Shown one piece after another: positions 1 through 4,369 of a stretch of 4,369 nt of DNA. The stretch is from a virus. Taxonomy: Duplodnaviria > Heunggongvirae > Uroviricota > Caudoviricetes. Every line of letters starts with the position of its first letter. Positions within the stretch are counted from its first letter, which is position 1. The notes under the pieces were generated by a model that was not told the DNA's origin, made no database searches, and saw nothing but the letters and a program-made list of their open reading frames with translations. Made by a program: the position numbers and the translations under genes. Where the stretch lies: IMG/VR virus record IMGVR_UViG_2585427751_000011, positions 1 through 4,369 of that record; one strand, given 5' to 3'.

Positions 1-228
1 ATCAAACTCCATTTGATATTAACTTTTGTTTATATCTTTATGTGGTTTATTTCAAAAATAACTCAATAAAAAACAAATAGATACAGAGCAAATTTAAAAA
101 TTTGAAATTAACCAGTTGATATTTACTAAGTTAATATCTAACATATCAAACATACACTAGTGAGTAACTCAATAGAGTAGCACACATGAGTAATAAAGTT
201 TGCCATAGAAAGTACACAGGGGGCCATT
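1..228. promoter_or_regulatory. AT-rich leader upstream of ner; putative early operator/promoter region of a Mu-like element
   Basis: No ORF in the six-frame track here. Strongly AT-rich compared with about 50% GC in the downstream coding DNA. Contains repeated TTGATAT/ATATCAA motifs (13-19, 116-122, 143-149) and the inverted repeat ATCAAA-n5-TTTGAT (1-17). In phage Mu the operator/Pe region lies immediately upstream of ner. Confidence 0.4.
116..144 (+). promoter_or_regulatory. Candidate sigma70-type early promoter (-35 TTGATA 116-121, 17-bp spacer, -10 TAACAT 139-144)
   Basis: Hexamers match consensus at 5/6 and 4/6 with a 17-bp spacer, oriented toward ner. An IHF-consensus match (TAAccagTTGATA, 109-121) overlaps the -35, and ACTAAGT (125-131) lies in the spacer. 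Such matches arise easily by chance in AT-rich DNA. Confidence 0.2.
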
Positions 229-474
229 GTGAGTCTTATTGAAGATTGGTCTTCCGCCGATATAAAGGCAGCCTTAGAAAAACGCGATACCAATTTGTCA
301 CGTTTATCAAGGGAAAATAATTTGCAGCCTAGGACTTTGGGTAATGCTTTGCGAGTTCCCTACCCTAAAGGTGAAAAGATAATTGCTAGGGCTATAGGTG
401 TAGAGCCACAGGTTATTTGGCCTACTAGATATGAACGACGTGCGCGGAGGAAATATGTGGGTTGCAATGACTGA
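229..474 (+). CDS. ner: Ner-like DNA-binding transcriptional regulator (Mu Ner / Nlp family)
   Basis: 81-aa ORF with a GTG start preceded by AGGGGG (218-223) at 5-nt spacing. The translation (…DWSSADIKAALEKRDTNLSRLSR…TLGNAL…YPKGEKIIARAIGVEPQVIWPTRY…) aligns by eye with Mu Ner (…DWHRADVIAGLKKRKLSLSALSR…TLANAL…WPKGEQIIANALETKPEVIWPSRY…). Position directly upstream of a MuA-like gene matches Mu gene order. Confidence 0.85.
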   Translation: MSLIEDWSSADIKAALEKRDTNLSRLSRENNLQPRTLGNALRVPYPKGEKIIARAIGVEPQVIWPTRYERRARRKYVGCND

Positions 475-2539
475 ATTGATTTCATTCAGTGACCTACCTA
501 GTTCTTTGGCAGGTCTGCACAAAAAAGCAAAGAGGGAAGCGTGGAAAACGCGGCTAAAACCAGGGGTAAAAGGGAAAGTTTTAGAGTGTGAAATAGGGGC
601 TTTGCCTTTAACTGTTCAGCAGGCAGTACGCGAACGCTATGCCCTGCAACTGATGACGCAAAAAGCCGATGAATCACCGGCTCCGGTAGTGACAAAGGCC
701 AGGCGCTCACCTGCCGTGGTTGATGCGGTGGAGGCATATCGCGGATCACCACAACTGATGCTCGAACGCCTCAATGCCCTGACTGAAAACCAGCGCCAGG
801 TGGCTGATGCACGAATCGCGATCGTCAGCGAAGTTCTGAAAGTCGCGCAACAACCTGGTTTCAGCTGTGCGAAGGCTATCCGGTTTATCGTTGACAACCT
901 GGCACGTTCGCAACTGGACGAGCGCATTGTGGCAATGGTTGAGACGGCGAACGCCAAAAAGGGAAACAGCCGTGCGTTGAGTGAAATCACGCTGAAACGC
1001 TGGATTGCAGCCTTTAACAAGGCGCAGAACGCCGCTGAACGCCTGCTTTTGCTGGCACCTGGTAAGCGCCAGGAAATAAAAGCCGAAGATATTAACTGGC
1101 TGCCCGAATTTCTGGCGCAGTATCGCCAGTCAAACGGCCGACCAATGACCGAGGCTTACGAGGATTTTGTCGCTGAATGGCAGCACCGGCACGCTGATGA
1201 GCCTTATATGCTCGATATCATGCCGTCTTACGACACCATCCGCCGCGCAATGAAGAAACTGCCGGAAGTGGTGAAACAAAAAGGCCGGGTGACCGGCAGT
1301 GAATACCGCCAGCTTGAGGGATTCACGCGCCGCGACTGGTCCAGAATGCCGGTGAATTATGTCTGGATTGGTGACGGTCACGGCATGAAGCTGAAATGCA
1401 GGCACCCGGTTCACGGGCGGCCATTTGCACCGGAAGTGACCTTTGTTATCGACGGTGGCACGCGCTTTGTGGTGGGCTGGAGCCTTGACCTGGCTGAAAA
1501 TGTTTTCGCCGTAGCCGGTGCCATACAGTACGGTATTCGTAATCACGGCAAACCGTTTCTGTATTACTCGGATAACGGTTCCGGGGAAACCGCCGACATC
1601 CTGGATAAGGAAGTTGTGGGGATCCTGCCGCGACTGGGGATTAATCACCCAACCGGGATTGCCGGTAACCCGCAGGGACGGGGCATTATCGAACGGCTTA
1701 ACCGCACGTTACCGATGCGTATAGCCCGTAAATACCGCACCTATTTCGGGAAAGGTGCAGATCGCGAGACGTTACGCAAAACCAACCGCGATTTACGCTC
1801 GGCATTTACCGCCCTGCAACAGGGCAAACGGCTGAACGCCCGGCAACAGTCAGCGATGCGTGATTTACCGTCCTGGTCTGAACTGATTGATGCCATTCGT
1901 GATGGCGTTGAGTGGTACAACAACCGGCCGCACGATGAATTACCCATGAAGCCGAACGGGAAGCATTACAGCCCGGCGGAGTTCAGAAAAAAACGCCTGG
2001 CAGAAGAGGACACGGAAATTGAATGGCTGTCCGATGTTGAGCTGCGGGATATGTTCCGGCCAATGGTGGAACGCCCTGTAAGACGCTGTGAAATACGCTG
2101 GCTGAATAATATTTACTACGCGCCCGAGCTGAGTGATGAGCATGGCCGCAAGGTGCTTATCAGCTATGACATTCATGATGCCGAACGAATTACCGTACGT
2201 CGCCCGGATGGCAGCGTGATTTGCGAGGCGGTATGGGACGGCAATAAACGCGAAGCCTTCCCGGTCAGCGCGGAATACTACAAACAGCAGCAACGCCTTA
2301 AAGGTATGCGTAAACGCGCAGAGGAAAAAATCCGTGATGCCGAGGATGAGGTTGTCAACGTGCTGGAGCACAAGCCGCAGGAGCCCTGGCTGGAAAACAT
2401 ATACCGCCCTGTGGGTAATACGGTGACCGTTCAGCAACCTGCCGTTGATGATGAGCCTGATGAAGAATACGAGCGTAATTTCCAGCGGGGATTGCAGTTG
2501 CTCGAAGCGAAATTAAAAGAAAATGACCCTCTGGCCTGA
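455..2539 (+). CDS. A: Mu-type DDE transposase (MuA homolog); ORF is open from 431 but ATG 455 is the better-supported start
   Basis: Long ORF (702 aa from 431, 694 aa from 455). N-terminus from 455 (MWVAMTELISFSDLPSSLAGLHKKAKREAW) aligns with Mu A (MELWVSPKECANLPGLPKTSAGVIYVAKKQGW). GGAGG at 446-450 precedes ATG 455. Core contains DDE-like motifs: VWIGDGHG (D codon 1373-1375), YYSDNGSG (D codon 1571-1573), GIIERLNRT (E codon 1691-1693). C-terminal IYRPVGNT…DDEPDEEYER resembles the MuA C-terminus IFRPSGNT…DDEYETERDEY. Overlaps the ner 3' end by 20 nt. Confidence 0.9.
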   Translation: MWVAMTELISFSDLPSSLAGLHKKAKREAWKTRLKPGVKGKVLECEIGALPLTVQQAVRERYALQLMTQKADESPAPVVTKARRSPAVVDAVEAYRGSPQLMLERLNALTENQRQVADARIAIVSEVLKVAQQPGFSCAKAIRFIVDNLARSQLDERIVAMVETANAKKGNSRALSEITLKRWIAAFNKAQNAAERLLLLAPGKRQEIKAEDINWLPEFLAQYRQSNGRPMTEAYEDFVAEWQHRHADEPYMLDIMPSYDTIRRAMKKLPEVVKQKGRVTGSEYRQLEGFTRRDWSRMPVNYVWIGDGHGMKLKCRHPVHGRPFAPEVTFVIDGGTRFVVGWSLDLAENVFAVAGAIQYGIRNHGKPFLYYSDNGSGETADILDKEVVGILPRLGINHPTGIAGNPQGRGIIERLNRTLPMRIARKYRTYFGKGADRETLRKTNRDLRSAFTALQQGKRLNARQQSAMRDLPSWSELIDAIRDGVEWYNNRPHDELPMKPNGKHYSPAEFRKKRLAEEDTEIEWLSDVELRDMFRPMVERPVRRCEIRWLNNIYYAPELSDEHGRKVLISYDIHDAERITVRRPDGSVICEAVWDGNKREAFPVSAEYYKQQQRLKGMRKRAEEKIRDAEDEVVNVLEHKPQEPWLENIYRPVGNTVTVQQPAVDDEPDEEYERNFQRGLQLLEAKLKENDPLA

Positions 2540-2546
2540 AATAAAA

Positions 2547-2576
2547 AAATAACCCGAGCGGCGACTCAGGTTATTT
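2547..2576 (+). terminator. Stem-loop with flanking A/T runs between A and B; possible weak intrinsic terminator or attenuator
   Basis: AAATAACC (2547-2554) pairs with GGTTATTT (2569-2576), with inner pairs 2556-2558 to 2565-2567 and a 6-nt loop. Sits 8 nt after the A stop codon and is followed by GATT. The stem is AT-rich and therefore weak. Confidence 0.25.
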
Positions 2577-2614
2577 GATTAAACAAAGGAACTACACAAA
2601 CGCGAGGTAATAAT

Positions 2615-3136
2615 ATGACCGATATAAACGATGTAATCAAGACCATTGATGAACTTATTGATGGCGGCGTGCTGACGCAGTATGCCATCGCCAGAGAGGC
2701 GGGAATTTCCGACGGCACATTATCGGCTTTCCGCAAGGGGAAATATAAAGGCGATAACGCCGCTGTGGCTGCTTCCCTGCGCTCCTGGTATGAGAACTGG
2801 AATAAACAAAGCGCACTGCCGGAACCGCCGCAGTTTGTGGAAACTCAGACAGTCCAGGAGCTGCGCGCACTGTTTCAGGCGGTTCGCCTGATGGGCTGTA
2901 TTAACGTTATTGTGGGCGTACCGGGTGTGGGTAAAACGGCCACTGCCCGTAATTACTGCCAGGAGCAACCAAACACCTGGATGATCACCCTGTCACCCGC
3001 GCACTCCAGCGTCACGGAGTGTCTGCTGGAGCTGGCCGATGCGCTGGGGATTGATTACACCCGCGCGAACAAAGGGGCATTATCTGTAAACGGTGAGCCG
3101 GGCTTACGGCCCGGCCCCTGCGGAGGGCAAATATGA
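2615..3136 (+). CDS. B: MuB-like AAA+ ATPase (target DNA activator), 3'-truncated: N-terminal HTH and Walker A only; probably non-functional
   Basis: 173-aa ORF with GAGGT (2604-2608) 6 nt before the ATG. The HTH region YAIAREAGISDGTLSAFRKGKYKGDN matches Mu B (QIALESGLSTGTISSFINDKYNGDN); PEPPQFVETQTV is nearly identical; Walker A is GVPGVGKT; WMIT…ECL.ELA matches. Similarity ends after …KGALS (about 3085) and the ORF stops at 3134-3136. Mu B is about 312 aa and continues with the Walker B region (…LVIIDEADHL…); no such continuation exists in any frame downstream. Confidence 0.8.
   Translation: MTDINDVIKTIDELIDGGVLTQYAIAREAGISDGTLSAFRKGKYKGDNAAVAASLRSWYENWNKQSALPEPPQFVETQTVQELRALFQAVRLMGCINVIVGVPGVGKTATARNYCQEQPNTWMITLSPAHSSVTECLLELADALGIDYTRANKGALSVNGEPGLRPGPCGGQI
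3097..3115 (+). other. Perfect GC-only hairpin (7-bp stem GCCGGGC/GCCCGGC, 5-nt loop TTACG) at the point where MuB homology ends
   Basis: Base pairs 3097-3103 with 3109-3115 read directly from the sequence. It lies within the last, non-homologous codons of the truncated B ORF and about 18 nt upstream of ATG 3133. Confidence 0.45.
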
Positions 3137-3486
3137 ATGAACATCACACTGTGGCAGCAACAGATGATTCAGGCCTTCAGGTCAGTGGTGACAGTCCTGT
3201 CACGGTACTGGCAGAAGTGCGTTGCAGTCGTGCGCAGTTTCGTCGTGCGGGGTTCCTGTTCATGCGGGGACGCCAGCAGGTTGACGTCACCCCGGAGCAG
3301 CTTGCCCGACTGGAAGCGGAGCCATGCCTCACTGTACGAATACTACAGACGCCTGGTGATGATGCGGGAGCCGTGGCGGGTGTGGTTCATGCAGAGACCG
3401 GTGCAGATTTAGCCGAAGCCGGACAGGATGCTCCCCGGAAAAAGACCGGCAATAACGCCAGACAGGCGAAAAAGGCTCGCGCATGA
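3133..3486 (+). CDS. Hypothetical protein (117 aa), GC-rich, basic C-terminal tail
   Basis: ATG 3133 is preceded by GGAGGG (3122-3127) at 5-nt spacing. Start overlaps the B' stop (ATGA) and the stop overlaps the next ATG (ATGA at 3483-3486). First codon positions are G-rich, as expected for real coding sequence. No family recognised. Caveat: in GC-rich DNA open frames occur by chance; the alternative ORF 3137-3412 is in the same frame as B'. Confidence 0.45.
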   Translation: MNEHHTVAATDDSGLQVSGDSPVTVLAEVRCSRAQFRRAGFLFMRGRQQVDVTPEQLARLEAEPCLTVRILQTPGDDAGAVAGVVHAETGADLAEAGQDAPRKKTGNNARQAKKARA

Positions 3487-3719
3487 ATTACGCCAACGGT
3501 TACACCGAAACGCAGGCCGACAGTGGCGCGGTGATGTATGCGCTTTATTTCTCCTGCGAGGAAATGATCGCACCGCTGACTGATATCAGCTCGCTGGATG
3601 ATTTCCTGCGCCATTACGAAACCTTCACCGAACCGGAAGGCACACCGGAATTTAAGGCGCACATCAGCCTGCCAGGTGCAACCGCCGCCGGTGAAAAAGC
3701 CGGACCGTCAGAGGAATAA
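3483..3719 (+). CDS. Hypothetical small acidic protein (78 aa)
   Basis: ATG overlaps the upstream stop (ATGA); AAAGG lies 7 nt upstream. Translation has about 14 Asp/Glu against 3 Lys/Arg. The next gene's SD (GAGGAA, 3711-3716) is embedded in its 3' end. No family recognised. Confidence 0.45.
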   Translation: MNYANGYTETQADSGAVMYALYFSCEEMIAPLTDISSLDDFLRHYETFTEPEGTPEFKAHISLPGATAAGEKAGPSEE

Positions 3720-3722
3720 CAG

Positions 3723-4010
3723 ATGACAACCATTTTTATCAAACCCGCGCCGGGATGCCTGATCCGCGATCCGGACACCATGAAACCGCTGGCGCAGGAG
3801 GGAGAGGAAAAACCCTTCACCCCGTTCTGGTGCCGCCGTCTTAATGACGGGGACGTCATTGTGGTGGAAAAAGCGGCTGAAGCAGCACCGGCAGCAGCGT
3901 CTGCAACGACTGATGCCGCCGGAAAACCCGCGGGAGCGGCAGCAGAAAAACCTGCGACTGAAAAACCCGCGACTGAAAAACCCGCAGCATCAGACAAGGG
4001 GACGTCCTGA
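3723..4010 (+). CDS. Small protein preceding the tail sheath gene (recalled as DUF2635 / Mu gp38-like); C-terminal Ala/Pro/Lys-rich tail with (EKPAT) repeats
   Basis: GAGGAA sits 8 nt before ATG 3723; the stop overlaps the sheath ATG (TGATG at 4008-4012). The N-terminal half (MTTIFIKPAPGCLIRDPDTMKPL…FWCRRLNDGDVIVVE) resembles, from memory, the short conserved ORF found just upstream of sheath genes in Mu-like tail modules. The C-terminus is low-complexity, encoded by the tandem repeat. Confidence 0.6.
   Translation: MTTIFIKPAPGCLIRDPDTMKPLAQEGEEKPFTPFWCRRLNDGDVIVVEKAAEAAPAAASATTDAAGKPAGAAAEKPATEKPATEKPAASDKGTS
3945..3989 (+). repeat. 15-bp tandem repeat, about 3 copies (GAAAAACCYGCGACT), in frame, encoding EKPAT-EKPAT-EKPAA; degenerate copy at 3921-3935
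   Basis: Units at 3945-3959, 3960-3974 and 3975-3989 read directly. Copies 1 and 2 differ at one base; copy 3 diverges in its last 4 nt. Confidence 0.8.
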
Positions 4011-4369
4011 TGATTAACTTTGATTATATCGGCGATAACAATCGCATTCCGCTGGTACAGATTGAAATCAATAATTCAATGGCCGTGACCGGCACTCCAC
4101 CACAGCGTCAGGCGGTACTGTTGTTTGGTCAGGCTGCAATGAAAGACACCACCATTCAGGGGCGCGGTCAGCTTGATGTACCAGTACGTATTACCCGAGC
4201 TTCACAAGCAAGAGAACTCTGGGGGCGAGGTTCCATGATTGCACTGATGGTAGAGGAATTTATCGCCATTAACCCTGACACAGAGTTATATGCCATTGCA
4301 CAGGGGGCTGGAACAGGTCAGTCCAGGGCATGCGTGATGAATATCATTGGAACAGCATTGGCAGACGGG
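4010..4369 (+). CDS. Phage tail sheath protein, N-terminal part (Mu gpL-like); continues beyond the window end
   Basis: ATG 4010 with AAGGGG 8 nt upstream; open to the window end (120 codons, no stop). Translation MINFDYIGDNNRIPLVQIEINNSMAVTGTPPQRQAVLLFGQ…RASQARELWGRGSMIALMVEEFIAINPDTELYAIA… fits the remembered N-terminal pattern of Mu-like sheath proteins (…FDNS.A…LL.GQ…A…FG.GS.LA.MV…N…ELW…). Confidence 0.65.
   Translation, partial: MINFDYIGDNNRIPLVQIEINNSMAVTGTPPQRQAVLLFGQAAMKDTTIQGRGQLDVPVRITRASQARELWGRGSMIALMVEEFIAINPDTELYAIAQGAGTGQSRACVMNIIGTALADG

Follow-up and report, generated by a model that had tools for sequence, protein, structure and literature searches.

The three open reading frames at positions 3133-4010 of the window (the whole 4,369-nt stretch of DNA analyzed) are very probably the remains of the neck and tail-completion block, equivalent to Mu genes 35 to 38, of a decayed Mu-like transposable prophage of E. 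coli. All three were found on the + strand where the sequence-only reading had placed them: ORF1 (3133-3486, 117 aa), ORF2 (3483-3719, 78 aa) and ORF3 (3723-4010, 95 aa). That reading presented them as a three-gene cassette of unknown function, with the first two proteins as candidates for something undescribed, and conceded that they might equally be ordinary tail-module accessory proteins in the Mu gp36/gp37 position. The concession proved essentially right and the claim of novelty did not hold, as ORF1 matches Mu gp35, ORF2 the C-terminus of Mu gp37 and ORF3 Mu gp38; the comparison with the Mu families that it had proposed as a check thus returned the clear family matches that it had named as evidence against novelty. 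These ORFs are already known, ordinary genes since they are leftovers of neck genes, the acidic 78-aa product being, as judged from the alignments, the end of a tail terminator left by a 743-bp deletion.

The gene order gp35-gp36-gp37-gp38-sheath was observed in an intact, 99% identical E. coli relative, which has 743 bp extra between the points joined at position 3495 of the window. In the prophage of E. coli AF39, genes coding for gpT, an HI1506-related protein (354 bp), a gp36 family protein (420 bp), a DUF1834 protein (564 bp), a DUF2635 protein (288 bp) and the sheath follow one another in this order. blastn aligned positions 3079-3495 of the window with 3001-3417 of the AF39 locus (L001), and positions 3495-4369 with 4160-5034 of the same locus. 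Therefore, 743 bp are missing from the window.

ORF1 (3133-3486, + strand) is an intact homologue of Mu gp35 and of HI1506 of FluMu, named 'HI1506-related protein' in RefSeq. It matched PF17891 (FluMu_N) with 36.9 bits (gathering cut-off 25.8, E = 3e-9), Mu gp35 itself reaching 40.8 bits, and phrog_3622 matched its full length (2.5e-65). BLASTP against Mu gp35 gave 4e-11 with 47% identity over 43 aa, and phmmer linked ORF1 to HI1506 (PDB 2OUT, 1.2e-4), which was also the top Foldseek hit of its AF2 model (probability 1.0, E = 1.2e-3). The model contains a folded N-terminal domain (pLDDT about 80 at residues 21-72) and a disordered tail, first acidic then basic (pLDDT <50 at residues 76-117), that includes a variable (EA)n stretch and ends in ...PRKKTGNNARQAKKARA, in agreement with the basic tail reported for the first protein. 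The second, C-terminal domain of HI1506 was not found in ORF1, where the sequence match stops at residue 92. A homologue search returned 86 clusters. Furthermore, ORF1 has the same length as its counterpart in the intact relative, which is located between gpT and gp36; in the window, ORF1 lies between what is left of these two genes, the final 11 nt of T on its upstream side and codons 1-4 of gp36 on its downstream side.

According to the alignments, ORF2 is no independent gene but an in-frame deletion chimera, in which 4 codons of gp36 precede 74 codons of gp37. The first part (MNYA, 3483-3494, + strand) is the beginning of an adaptor gene of the Mu gp36/PF07030 family, which starts at position 3405 of the AF39 locus, and this stub gives ORF2 both its start codon and the ATGA coupling to ORF1 (3483-3486). 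The second part (3495-3719, + strand) is the end of a tail-terminator gene (Mu gp37/DUF1834), with 74 codons specifying residues 114-187. Indeed, protein alignment resolved ORF2 into MNYA plus DUF1834 residues 114-187, its C-terminal part being 95% identical to the C-terminus of the relative's 187-aa DUF1834 protein. The phrog_490 match was confined to positions 125-188 of 190, and BLASTP against Mu gp37 aligned residues 118-172 (4e-15, 38% identity). ORF2 had no match to PF08873, the Phage_Mu_Gp37/DUF1834 terminator core, which in the full-length parent covers residues 1-119, exactly the part missing from ORF2. The parent matched the solved Mu tail terminator (PDB 9khy/9lj8) at 6e-42. With only residues 114-187 of 187 kept, ORF2 is short of the full terminator length of about 180-190 aa, and with its core deleted it is unlikely to form the hexameric ring that caps tube and sheath. 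The PF07030 adaptor domain is absent from the window, in which only gp36 codons 1-4 persist; the relative's 139-aa gp36 protein matched it with 6.6e-36. The strong acidity already pointed out for the middle protein was confirmed (14 D/E, 3 K/R, net charge -11), and is the native charge of the C-terminal region of the terminator. Searching with ORF2 recovered only six homologue clusters, all composed of gene fragments. The members of its own cluster and nearly all its homologues are marked partial or lie on short contigs, and are apparently full-length genes cut at contig ends.

blastn located the junction that gave rise to ORF2 at position 3495, inside the cassette, where it had been missed by the sequence-only reading. 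There, a 743-bp in-frame deletion joins gp36 codon 5 to gp37 codon 113, with 1 base (A) common to both sides. A 9-bp direct repeat, CACCGAAAC, adjoins both breakpoints in the intact phage. Simple slippage between the CACCGAAAC repeats was considered and rejected, the observed junction being 9 bp off the predicted place.

ORF3 (3723-4010, + strand) is an intact homologue of Mu gp38 (DUF2635). It matched PF10948 with 70.5 bits (gathering cut-off 26.6, E = 9.3e-20), compared with 78.9 bits for Mu gp38 itself, and also matched phrog_208 (2.9e-24) and, by BLASTP, Mu gp38 (7e-19, 67% identity over 43 aa); its homologues fell into 50 clusters. A conserved 48-aa N-terminal domain is followed by a variable, disordered tail rich in Ala, Pro, Glu and Lys, and the AF2 model showed pLDDT >89 at residues 1-49 and <50 over most of the tail. 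The DUF2635 domain is a confident prediction, yet Foldseek of its model against the PDB returned no usable structural neighbour (best E = 0.77). The tail contains a 15-bp tandem repeat (3945-3985, + strand; EKPAT unit, 2.7 copies, TRF score 75) whose copy number varies among copies of the element, resulting in ORF3 products of 90 and 95 aa. Immediately downstream, the first 120 codons of a tail sheath gene of the Mu gp39/L family (4010-4369, + strand) were recognized by phrog_5292 (1.3e-42) and phrog_165 (4.2e-33), as had been predicted. The chaining of the ORFs by ATGA overlaps stood for the truncated upstream gene B' and ORF1, and for ORF1 and ORF2. It did not stand for ORF2 and ORF3, which are separated by a gap of 3 nt (TAA CAG ATG), nor for ORF3 and the sheath gene, where the ORF3 stop codon (4008-4010) overlaps the sheath ATG (4010) by 1 nt (TGATG), a layout shared by the intact relative and Mu.

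Upstream of ORF1, B' (2615-3136, + strand) is a truncated gene of 173 aa for a MuB-like transposition ATPase, residues 1-157 of which matched phrog_296 'DNA transposition protein' (4.4e-53); the AAA ATPase gene of an intact relative measures 933 bp. The deletion junction suspected at the cassette was found just upstream of it, at 3079-3084, where blastn against intact relatives aligned the left part over 1-3084 and the right part from 3079. The 6 bp shared by the two sides are ATTATC, and the 16.8-kb deletion extends from the middle of B to 11 nt before the end of T. These 11 nt of the major head gene T (3079-3089, + strand), including its TAA stop codon (3087-3089), correspond to the interval that opens at position 3001 of the AF39 locus, where gpT ends at 3011. 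From base 3079 onward, B' runs out of frame across this end of T and the T-gp35 spacer, and its TGA stop codon overlaps the ATG of ORF1 by chance (ATGA, 3133-3136). The spacer includes a GC-rich stem-loop, GCCGGGCU-UAC-GGCCCGGC (3092-3118, + strand; RNA fold -21.7 kcal/mol, z = -1.4), which is found after T in intact phages. It has no T-run and the terminator scan made no call at this site, whereas a predicted terminator is annotated at the equivalent position after T in phage Mu. A Shine-Dalgarno-like GGAGGG (3122-3127, + strand), read from the sequence 5 nt before the ATG of ORF1, is identical in the intact relative.

The description of the cassette as GC-rich was correct in direction, with 57.7% GC at 3133-4010 versus 53.8% in the A/B' region and 52.3% in the whole window, though the effect is modest. 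GC3, which had been suggested as a check of the coding frames, did not single them out here; dN/dS against intact relatives was used in its place and did so, at 0.05-0.09 for the frame of ORF2 and 0.11-0.15 for that of ORF3. These coding frames are under purifying selection within the family. NCBIfam and PADLOC scans of the three ORFs yielded zero matches, an Rfam scan of the window at E up to 0.1 yielded none, and inverted repeats were not found in 2900-4369. The promoter and terminator scan of 2400-4369 gave counts at chance level, with no promoter-like site between B' and ORF1. Within the collection of papers searched, neither DUF2635 nor HI1506 nor any Mu-like prophage in malX is mentioned.

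The window belongs to a 13,123-bp remnant inserted in E. coli malX, while an intact Mu-like prophage measures 39,074 bp. Its ends, TGTAACC... and ...GCGCTATA, are located inside malX. Mu-type markers were detected (Mu-transpos_C, 3.7e-17; HTH_Tnp_Mu_1; HTH_35, 6.7e-27; phrog_296), and with its transposase, ner-like regulator, B ATPase gene and defined ends in a host gene the remnant is a Mu-like transposable prophage. Four internal deletions of 16.8, 0.74, 5.2 and 3.15 kb, whose junctions overlap by 6, 1, 2 and 5 bp, eliminated the 3' portion of B along with the early genes, the genes for lysis and head, the adaptor gene with most of the terminator gene, and the tube, tape measure and baseplate genes. 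We propose that the prophage shrank from about 39 kb to 13.1 kb through these deletions, and that the 743-bp one spared only four codons of gp36 and also took codons 1-113 of gp37, in frame by chance. The resulting 78-aa chimera would then have taken over the gp36 start codon and its ATGA coupling to ORF1.

In intact Mu, the gp36 dodecamer is located on the portal, and the gp37 hexamer caps both tube and sheath, its C-terminal beta-hairpin joining domain I of the last sheath ring in a common beta-sheet (PMC11915804). gp35 and gp38, neither of which was resolved in the virion structure (PMC11915804), are presumed from gene position and annotation to have a structural or assembly role. In the Mu record, genes 35-38 carry the labels connector, connector (J), tail terminator (K) and putative sheath terminator. 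In the remnant, the head, portal, adaptor, tube, tape-measure and baseplate genes are gone, and the sheath gene lacks its 3' end: it has 485 sheath codons followed by 38 out-of-frame codons, the last 15 residues being lost. We infer that the neck block no longer has an assembly function there. The deletions also removed the late-gene activator gene and the region upstream of the head genes, and expression of ORF1 to ORF3 would depend entirely on read-through of the early ner-A-B' operon. The remnant retains the c repressor gene. Against a silent, functionless block, ORF2 is in frame with a good start context, and ORF1 and ORF3 are intact.

The junctions between the remnant and host DNA vary between strains and always fall exactly at the remnant ends, which suggests that the transposase is still active. 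By eye, the host bases at the variant end junctions fit the Mu target consensus NYSRN poorly, which speaks neither for nor against a part played by the transposase.

An alternative is co-option by the host, whereby ORF2 as a terminator fragment, perhaps aided by gp35, gp38 and the truncated sheath, would hinder tail assembly of superinfecting Mu-like phages. If expressed, ORF2 would occupy the sheath surface normally bound by the terminator hairpin. It keeps the region aligned to Mu gp37 residues 118-172, and the gp37 C-terminus binds the sheath (PMC11915804); moreover, the in-frame deletion preserved translational coupling, and the remnant has a wide distribution across E. coli assemblies and gut metagenomes. 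However, one third of deletions are in frame by chance, and since the copies are almost identical, their spread can be explained by recent clonal descent instead of selection. The presence of the c repressor gene, the lack of an evident promoter upstream of the block and the loss of the 113-residue core needed for the hexameric ring also count against this explanation, which we regard as very unlikely, and ORF2 may not fold. It is likewise very unlikely that ORF2, expressed by read-through from the early operon, acts as a decoy that blocks correct tail capping of superinfecting Mu-like phages; if it did, superinfection interference would have been created by gene decay.

Even less probable is the idea, ventured by the sequence-only reading, that ORF2 is a small acidic phage protein of its own, for instance a DNA mimic, a factor against restriction or other defences, or an assembly chaperone. 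Its 78-aa length, its net charge of -11, its start codon coupled to an upstream ORF and the lack of significant Pfam, NCBIfam or PADLOC matches are all compatible with such a protein. However, 95% identity links its last 74 residues to the C-terminus of the 187-aa terminator, its first 4 codons come from the adaptor gene, its PHROG match is limited to positions 125-188 of a 190-position profile, its junction sequence is confined to one remnant lineage, its cluster members and nearly all its homologues are apparent contig-end fragments, and it is located in the late structural module, outside the early and accessory regions. An anti-defence protein or DNA mimic is thus refuted in practice by alignment to intact relatives, and ORF2 is better read as a gp36-gp37 deletion chimera found in a single remnant lineage.

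The same remnant was found in dozens of independent assemblies, and its recurrence shows that it is no assembly artefact. An exact protein-sequence look-up found the ORF2 product indexed in 82 blocks of the searched collection, on 42 contigs. The gene order around it was the same at each of the 10 places examined, which come from independent NCBI, ENA and Logan assemblies. Carrier contigs reach 204 kb and contain the complete remnant flanked on each side by host DNA. The window is 100% identical to contig JOQJ01000032.1 of GCA_000714025.1, and remnant copies are nearly identical (0-1 SNP in 4.4 kb), their main difference being a 15-bp indel. The joined arrangement was found in none of 5,426 complete E. 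coli genomes, and exact-pattern scans for both junctions gave no match in GTDB species representatives or JGI metagenomes and matched one IMG/VR contig, the sequence of which is the same as the window. That the source contig stops inside the sheath gene and that the junctions are missing from the complete E. coli genomes, GTDB representatives and JGI metagenomes could suggest assembly or chimeric-read artefacts in a genome that really carries an intact prophage, yet this is scarcely credible given identical junctions and gene order in the 10 places (NCBI isolates, ENA metagenomes and Logan) and overlaps of 1-6 bp, too short for de Bruijn graph mis-joins.

The decayed neck block serves mainly as a caution: a small acidic ORF without a family match in a tail module, seemingly an anti-defence candidate, is here a tail-terminator stump. 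It was comparison with an intact relative that exposed ORF2 as the stump, which one of the four deletions produced as the prophage decayed.

Compared with genes 35-38 of phage Mu, which lie upstream of the sheath gene L (gp39), the window has the same order and tight gene coupling but lacks the adaptor gene and the first 113 terminator codons. Furthermore, ORF3 has an extra 45-aa low-complexity tail relative to Mu gp38 (67 aa), whereas ORF1 (117 aa) is shorter than Mu gp35 (136 aa). ORF1 has in common with HI1506/FluMu gp35 of Haemophilus influenzae (2OUT, PF17891) the N-terminal beta-rich domain; HI1506 is described as a two-domain protein, whereas ORF1 matches only the first domain and continues with a disordered tail. 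Another close system is the E. coli AF39 prophage (NZ_OZ547136.1, integrated in dcyD), whose nucleotide identity to what is retained of the cassette is 98.9-99.5% and in which ORF1 and ORF3 have identical lengths. Similar prophages are found in other E. coli, including O157:H7 strains. The AF39 prophage is complete (39 kb) and codes for gp36 (139 aa) and full gp37 (187 aa), whereas the window's element has lost 26 kb through its four deletions and differs in its immunity region.

Laboratory mini-Mu elements consist of the Mu ends and A, with or without B, most late genes being deleted. Like them, the remnant keeps both ends, the repressor, ner and an intact A, and has lost most morphogenesis genes. 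Unlike them, it is of natural origin, having arisen by illegitimate recombination, and it still carries the neck cassette, a truncated sheath gene, the 3' end of baseplate gene P and the right arm from gin to mom. The remnant resembles a natural mini-Mu that may still rearrange neighbouring host DNA, which makes it more interesting than the cassette itself.

Along its + strand, the window first encodes a ner-like protein (229-474; HTH_35, 6.7e-27) and a Mu-type transposase, A (431-2539; Mu-transpos_C, 3.7e-17). Next comes the 173-aa ORF B', which corresponds to the first half of a MuB-type transposition ATPase (2615-3136; phrog_296, 4.4e-53, residues 1-157). It is followed by three small ORFs and, from 4010, by the beginning of a tail sheath gene. 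The small ORFs, ORF1 (3133-3486), ORF2 (3483-3719) and ORF3 (3723-4010), lie upstream of the sheath gene as the sequence-only reading had described. That reading took them for a GC-rich cassette of unknown function, chained by ATGA overlaps and possibly encoding an anti-defence-type acidic protein, with ordinary tail-module accessory proteins in the Mu gp36/gp37 position as its cautious alternative. Our results bear out the alternative, as clear matches to the Mu gp36/gp37 families were found. ORF1 and ORF3 are known genes of the Mu family and ORF2 is the stump of a tail terminator gene left by a deletion; all three lie within a decaying prophage. The ATGA chain holds for B'/ORF1 and ORF1/ORF2 but not for ORF2/ORF3 (3 nt apart) or ORF3/sheath (one-base overlap), and the GC excess exists but is modest (57.7% vs 53.8% in the A/B' region).

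ORF1 belongs to the Mu gp35 family. It passed the cut-off for Pfam FluMu_N (36.9 bits, cut-off 25.8), matched phrog_3622 over its full length, and matched both Mu gp35 (BLASTP, 4e-11) and the sequence of the solved FluMu gp35/HI1506 structure 2OUT (1.2e-4). Furthermore, 2OUT was the top PDB neighbour (probability 1.0) of the ORF1 AlphaFold model, in which residues 21-72 reached a pLDDT of ~80. The basic C-terminal tail quoted earlier for this protein was confirmed. Between the folded domain and this tail, ORF1 relatives have a dipeptide repeat, (EA)n or (GA)n, whose length varies so much that the proteins span 112-131 aa; the version in the window (about 3405-3420, residues 92-97) is among the shortest.

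ORF3 belongs to the DUF2635 (Mu gp38) family, with a score of 70.5 bits against a cut-off of 26.6, and Mu gp38 is 67% identical to it over 43 residues. The DUF2635 domain (window 3723-3870, residues 1-49) is predicted with a pLDDT above 89 as three short strands and one helix, and a Foldseek search of the PDB with the model gave no significant match (best E 0.77). Across the family, the 48-aa N-terminal domain is nearly invariant, in contrast to the tail, which differs widely in both length and sequence. In ORF3, the disordered tail contains a 15-bp tandem repeat (EKPAT unit; window 3945-3985) whose copy number differs among otherwise identical remnants of the prophage (L003, L004, L006, L007, L009 and L012), yielding a 90-aa or 95-aa product. 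Length-variable low-complexity stretches are thus found in both intact small proteins, as (EA)n in ORF1 relatives and EKPAT in ORF3.

The 78-aa product of ORF2 is, as first read, strongly acidic, with a net charge of -11 from 14 acidic residues against 3 basic ones. It had no significant match in Pfam and matched only positions 125-188 of the 190-position phrog_490 profile, which pointed to a gene fragment. Complete E. coli genomes were searched by megablast using a 1,370-base query that included window 3079-4369, and 23 of them cover this interval in two pieces (94% of the query) with extra DNA in between. In the best-matching genome, E. coli AF39, which bears an intact Mu-like prophage, the annotated gene order is gpT (major head protein), an HI1506-related protein (354 bp), a gp36-family protein (420 bp), a DUF1834 protein (564 bp), a DUF2635 protein (288 bp) and the sheath. 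Window 3079-3495 aligns with positions 3001-3417 of the AF39 locus (99.5% identity) and window 3495-4369 with positions 4160-5034 (98.9% identity), indicating a loss of 743 bp at window base 3495. This deletion keeps the reading frame: the initial MNYA of ORF2 represents gp36 codons 1-4, and the remainder corresponds to residues 114-187 of the DUF1834 protein (187 aa), from which it differs at one amino acid. A search with the full-length DUF1834 protein found the solved Mu tail terminator (PDB 9khy/9lj8; 6e-42), and Mu gp37 residues 118-172 align with ORF2 (4e-15). Pfam Phage_Mu_Gp37 covers residues 1-119 of the full-length protein, exactly the portion absent from ORF2. Since ORF2 is the C-terminal stretch of the terminator, its negative charge is native to the terminator's own C-terminal region.

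In family comparisons, dN/dS was 0.05-0.09 for the terminator C-terminus (dS 0.17-0.38) and 0.11-0.15 for ORF3 (dS about 0.6); judging from these two regions, differences in ORF1 being too few, the coding frames of the family are under purifying selection. Retention of the terminator C-terminal region in ORF2 and the in-frame join at 3495 would suit co-option of the block as a decoy against related phages, but nothing else supports this scenario, which we regard as very improbable. Remnant copies differ by 0-1 SNP and are too alike for any selection test. A free-standing acidic anti-defence protein is ruled out by the alignment and by the lack of an independent family. PADLOC and NCBIfam scans returned no matches.

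The window is part of a 13,123-bp remnant of a Mu-like prophage, located inside malX with malI and malY on either side and with a host flank 100% identical to E. coli. The same gene order was observed in all 10 places examined: c repressor, ner, A, B' (173 aa), ORF1, ORF2, ORF3 (90 or 95 aa), a 523-aa sheath ORF, a 94-aa fragment, a tail-fibre assembly gene, a Gin-type invertase gene, a 684-aa SASA/DUF6645 gene, DUF1378, DUF826 and mom. Contig JOQJ01000032.1 of GCA_000714025.1 is identical to the window and ends in the sheath gene. The exact ORF2 product is listed for 82 blocks of the assembly collection and for 42 contigs, under the name 'hypothetical protein [Escherichia coli]'.

When one complete remnant was aligned with the intact 39,074-bp prophage of AF39, four internal deletions emerged. 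The first (16.8 kb, 6-bp overlap ATTATC) begins in mid-B and stops 11 nt short of the T gene end, and the second (0.74 kb, 1-bp overlap A) extends from gp36 to gp37. The third (5.2 kb, 2-bp overlap TG) reaches from the 3' end of the sheath gene into baseplate gene P, and the fourth (3.15 kb, 5-bp overlap TAACG) from immediately beyond P to the tail-fibre region. An assembly artefact is ruled out, since many independent assemblies share these junctions, on contigs of up to 204 kb, and mis-joins cannot arise from overlaps as short as 1-6 bp. In the remnant, the sheath ORF keeps 485 sheath codons, to which 38 out-of-frame codons have been added, and its final 15 residues are gone.

The ATGA overlap of B' and ORF1 is accidental, because the shifted B' frame crosses the T-gp35 spacer and stops there by chance. 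Past the first deletion join (3079-3084), the out-of-frame reading (window 3079-3136) crosses the end of T, the post-T stem-loop and the ORF1 ribosome-binding site, and its stop is the TGA within ATGA. The first deletion also took the late-activator gene (Mor/C family) and all sequence upstream of the head genes, and no promoter-like site was found between B' and ORF1. Therefore, any expression of the block would presumably have to start from the early operon.

Remnant-host junctions differ between assemblies, each lying exactly at the element ends, which are outside the window (loci L003-L012). Four left and three right breakpoints were observed in uidA and malX. In the coordinates of the reference locus L015, where malX spans 8894-10486, left flanks end at 9799, 9727, 9362 or 4969 (inside uidA) and right flanks start at 9902, 10067 or 10472. 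As no single insertion site accounts for all junctions, several independent end-adjacent deletions, or local hops, must have happened. This pattern looks like repeated transposase-mediated deletions beside the ends by a still-active natural mini-Mu (A intact, B truncated).

The tail-fibre assembly gene (Caudo_TAP) adjoining the Gin-type invertase gene is on the + strand in some assemblies and the - strand in others (L003-L010, about 12.7-13.3 kb, locus coordinates, downstream of the window), so the invertible segment still flips in the remnant. The SASA/DUF6645 gene (sialate O-acetylesterase-like), between gin and mom with the DUF1378 and DUF826 genes (L003-L005, about 14.4-16.5 kb, locus coordinates, also downstream of the window), may be a cargo gene; all three are intact in both the remnant and the intact relative. 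The immunity region (window 1 to about 616; L005 5795-7134), comprising the c repressor, operators, ner and the start of A, had no match in the AF39 prophage, which is elsewhere 96-99% identical, but STEC prophages, those of E. coli O157:H7 among them, match it at ~97%. For some genomes, similarity to the window starts only at about base 617. This module has therefore been exchanged between Mu-like prophages. In the intact relative, an 80-nt 'tRNA-OTHER' (RefSeq) is annotated on the opposite strand between the F and G head genes (L001 169-248), within the portion deleted from the remnant.

The curated Mu record assigns head-to-tail connector proteins to genes 35 and 36 (J), the tail terminator to gene 37 (K) and, putatively, a sheath terminator to gene 38. 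A 2025 cryo-EM study of Mu (PMC11915804), in which gp35, gp38 and gp41 were not resolved, showed gp37 to be a hexamer capping the tube and sheath, with a C-terminal beta-hairpin that shares a beta-sheet with the last sheath ring, and gp36 to be an adaptor that sits on the portal as a dodecamer.
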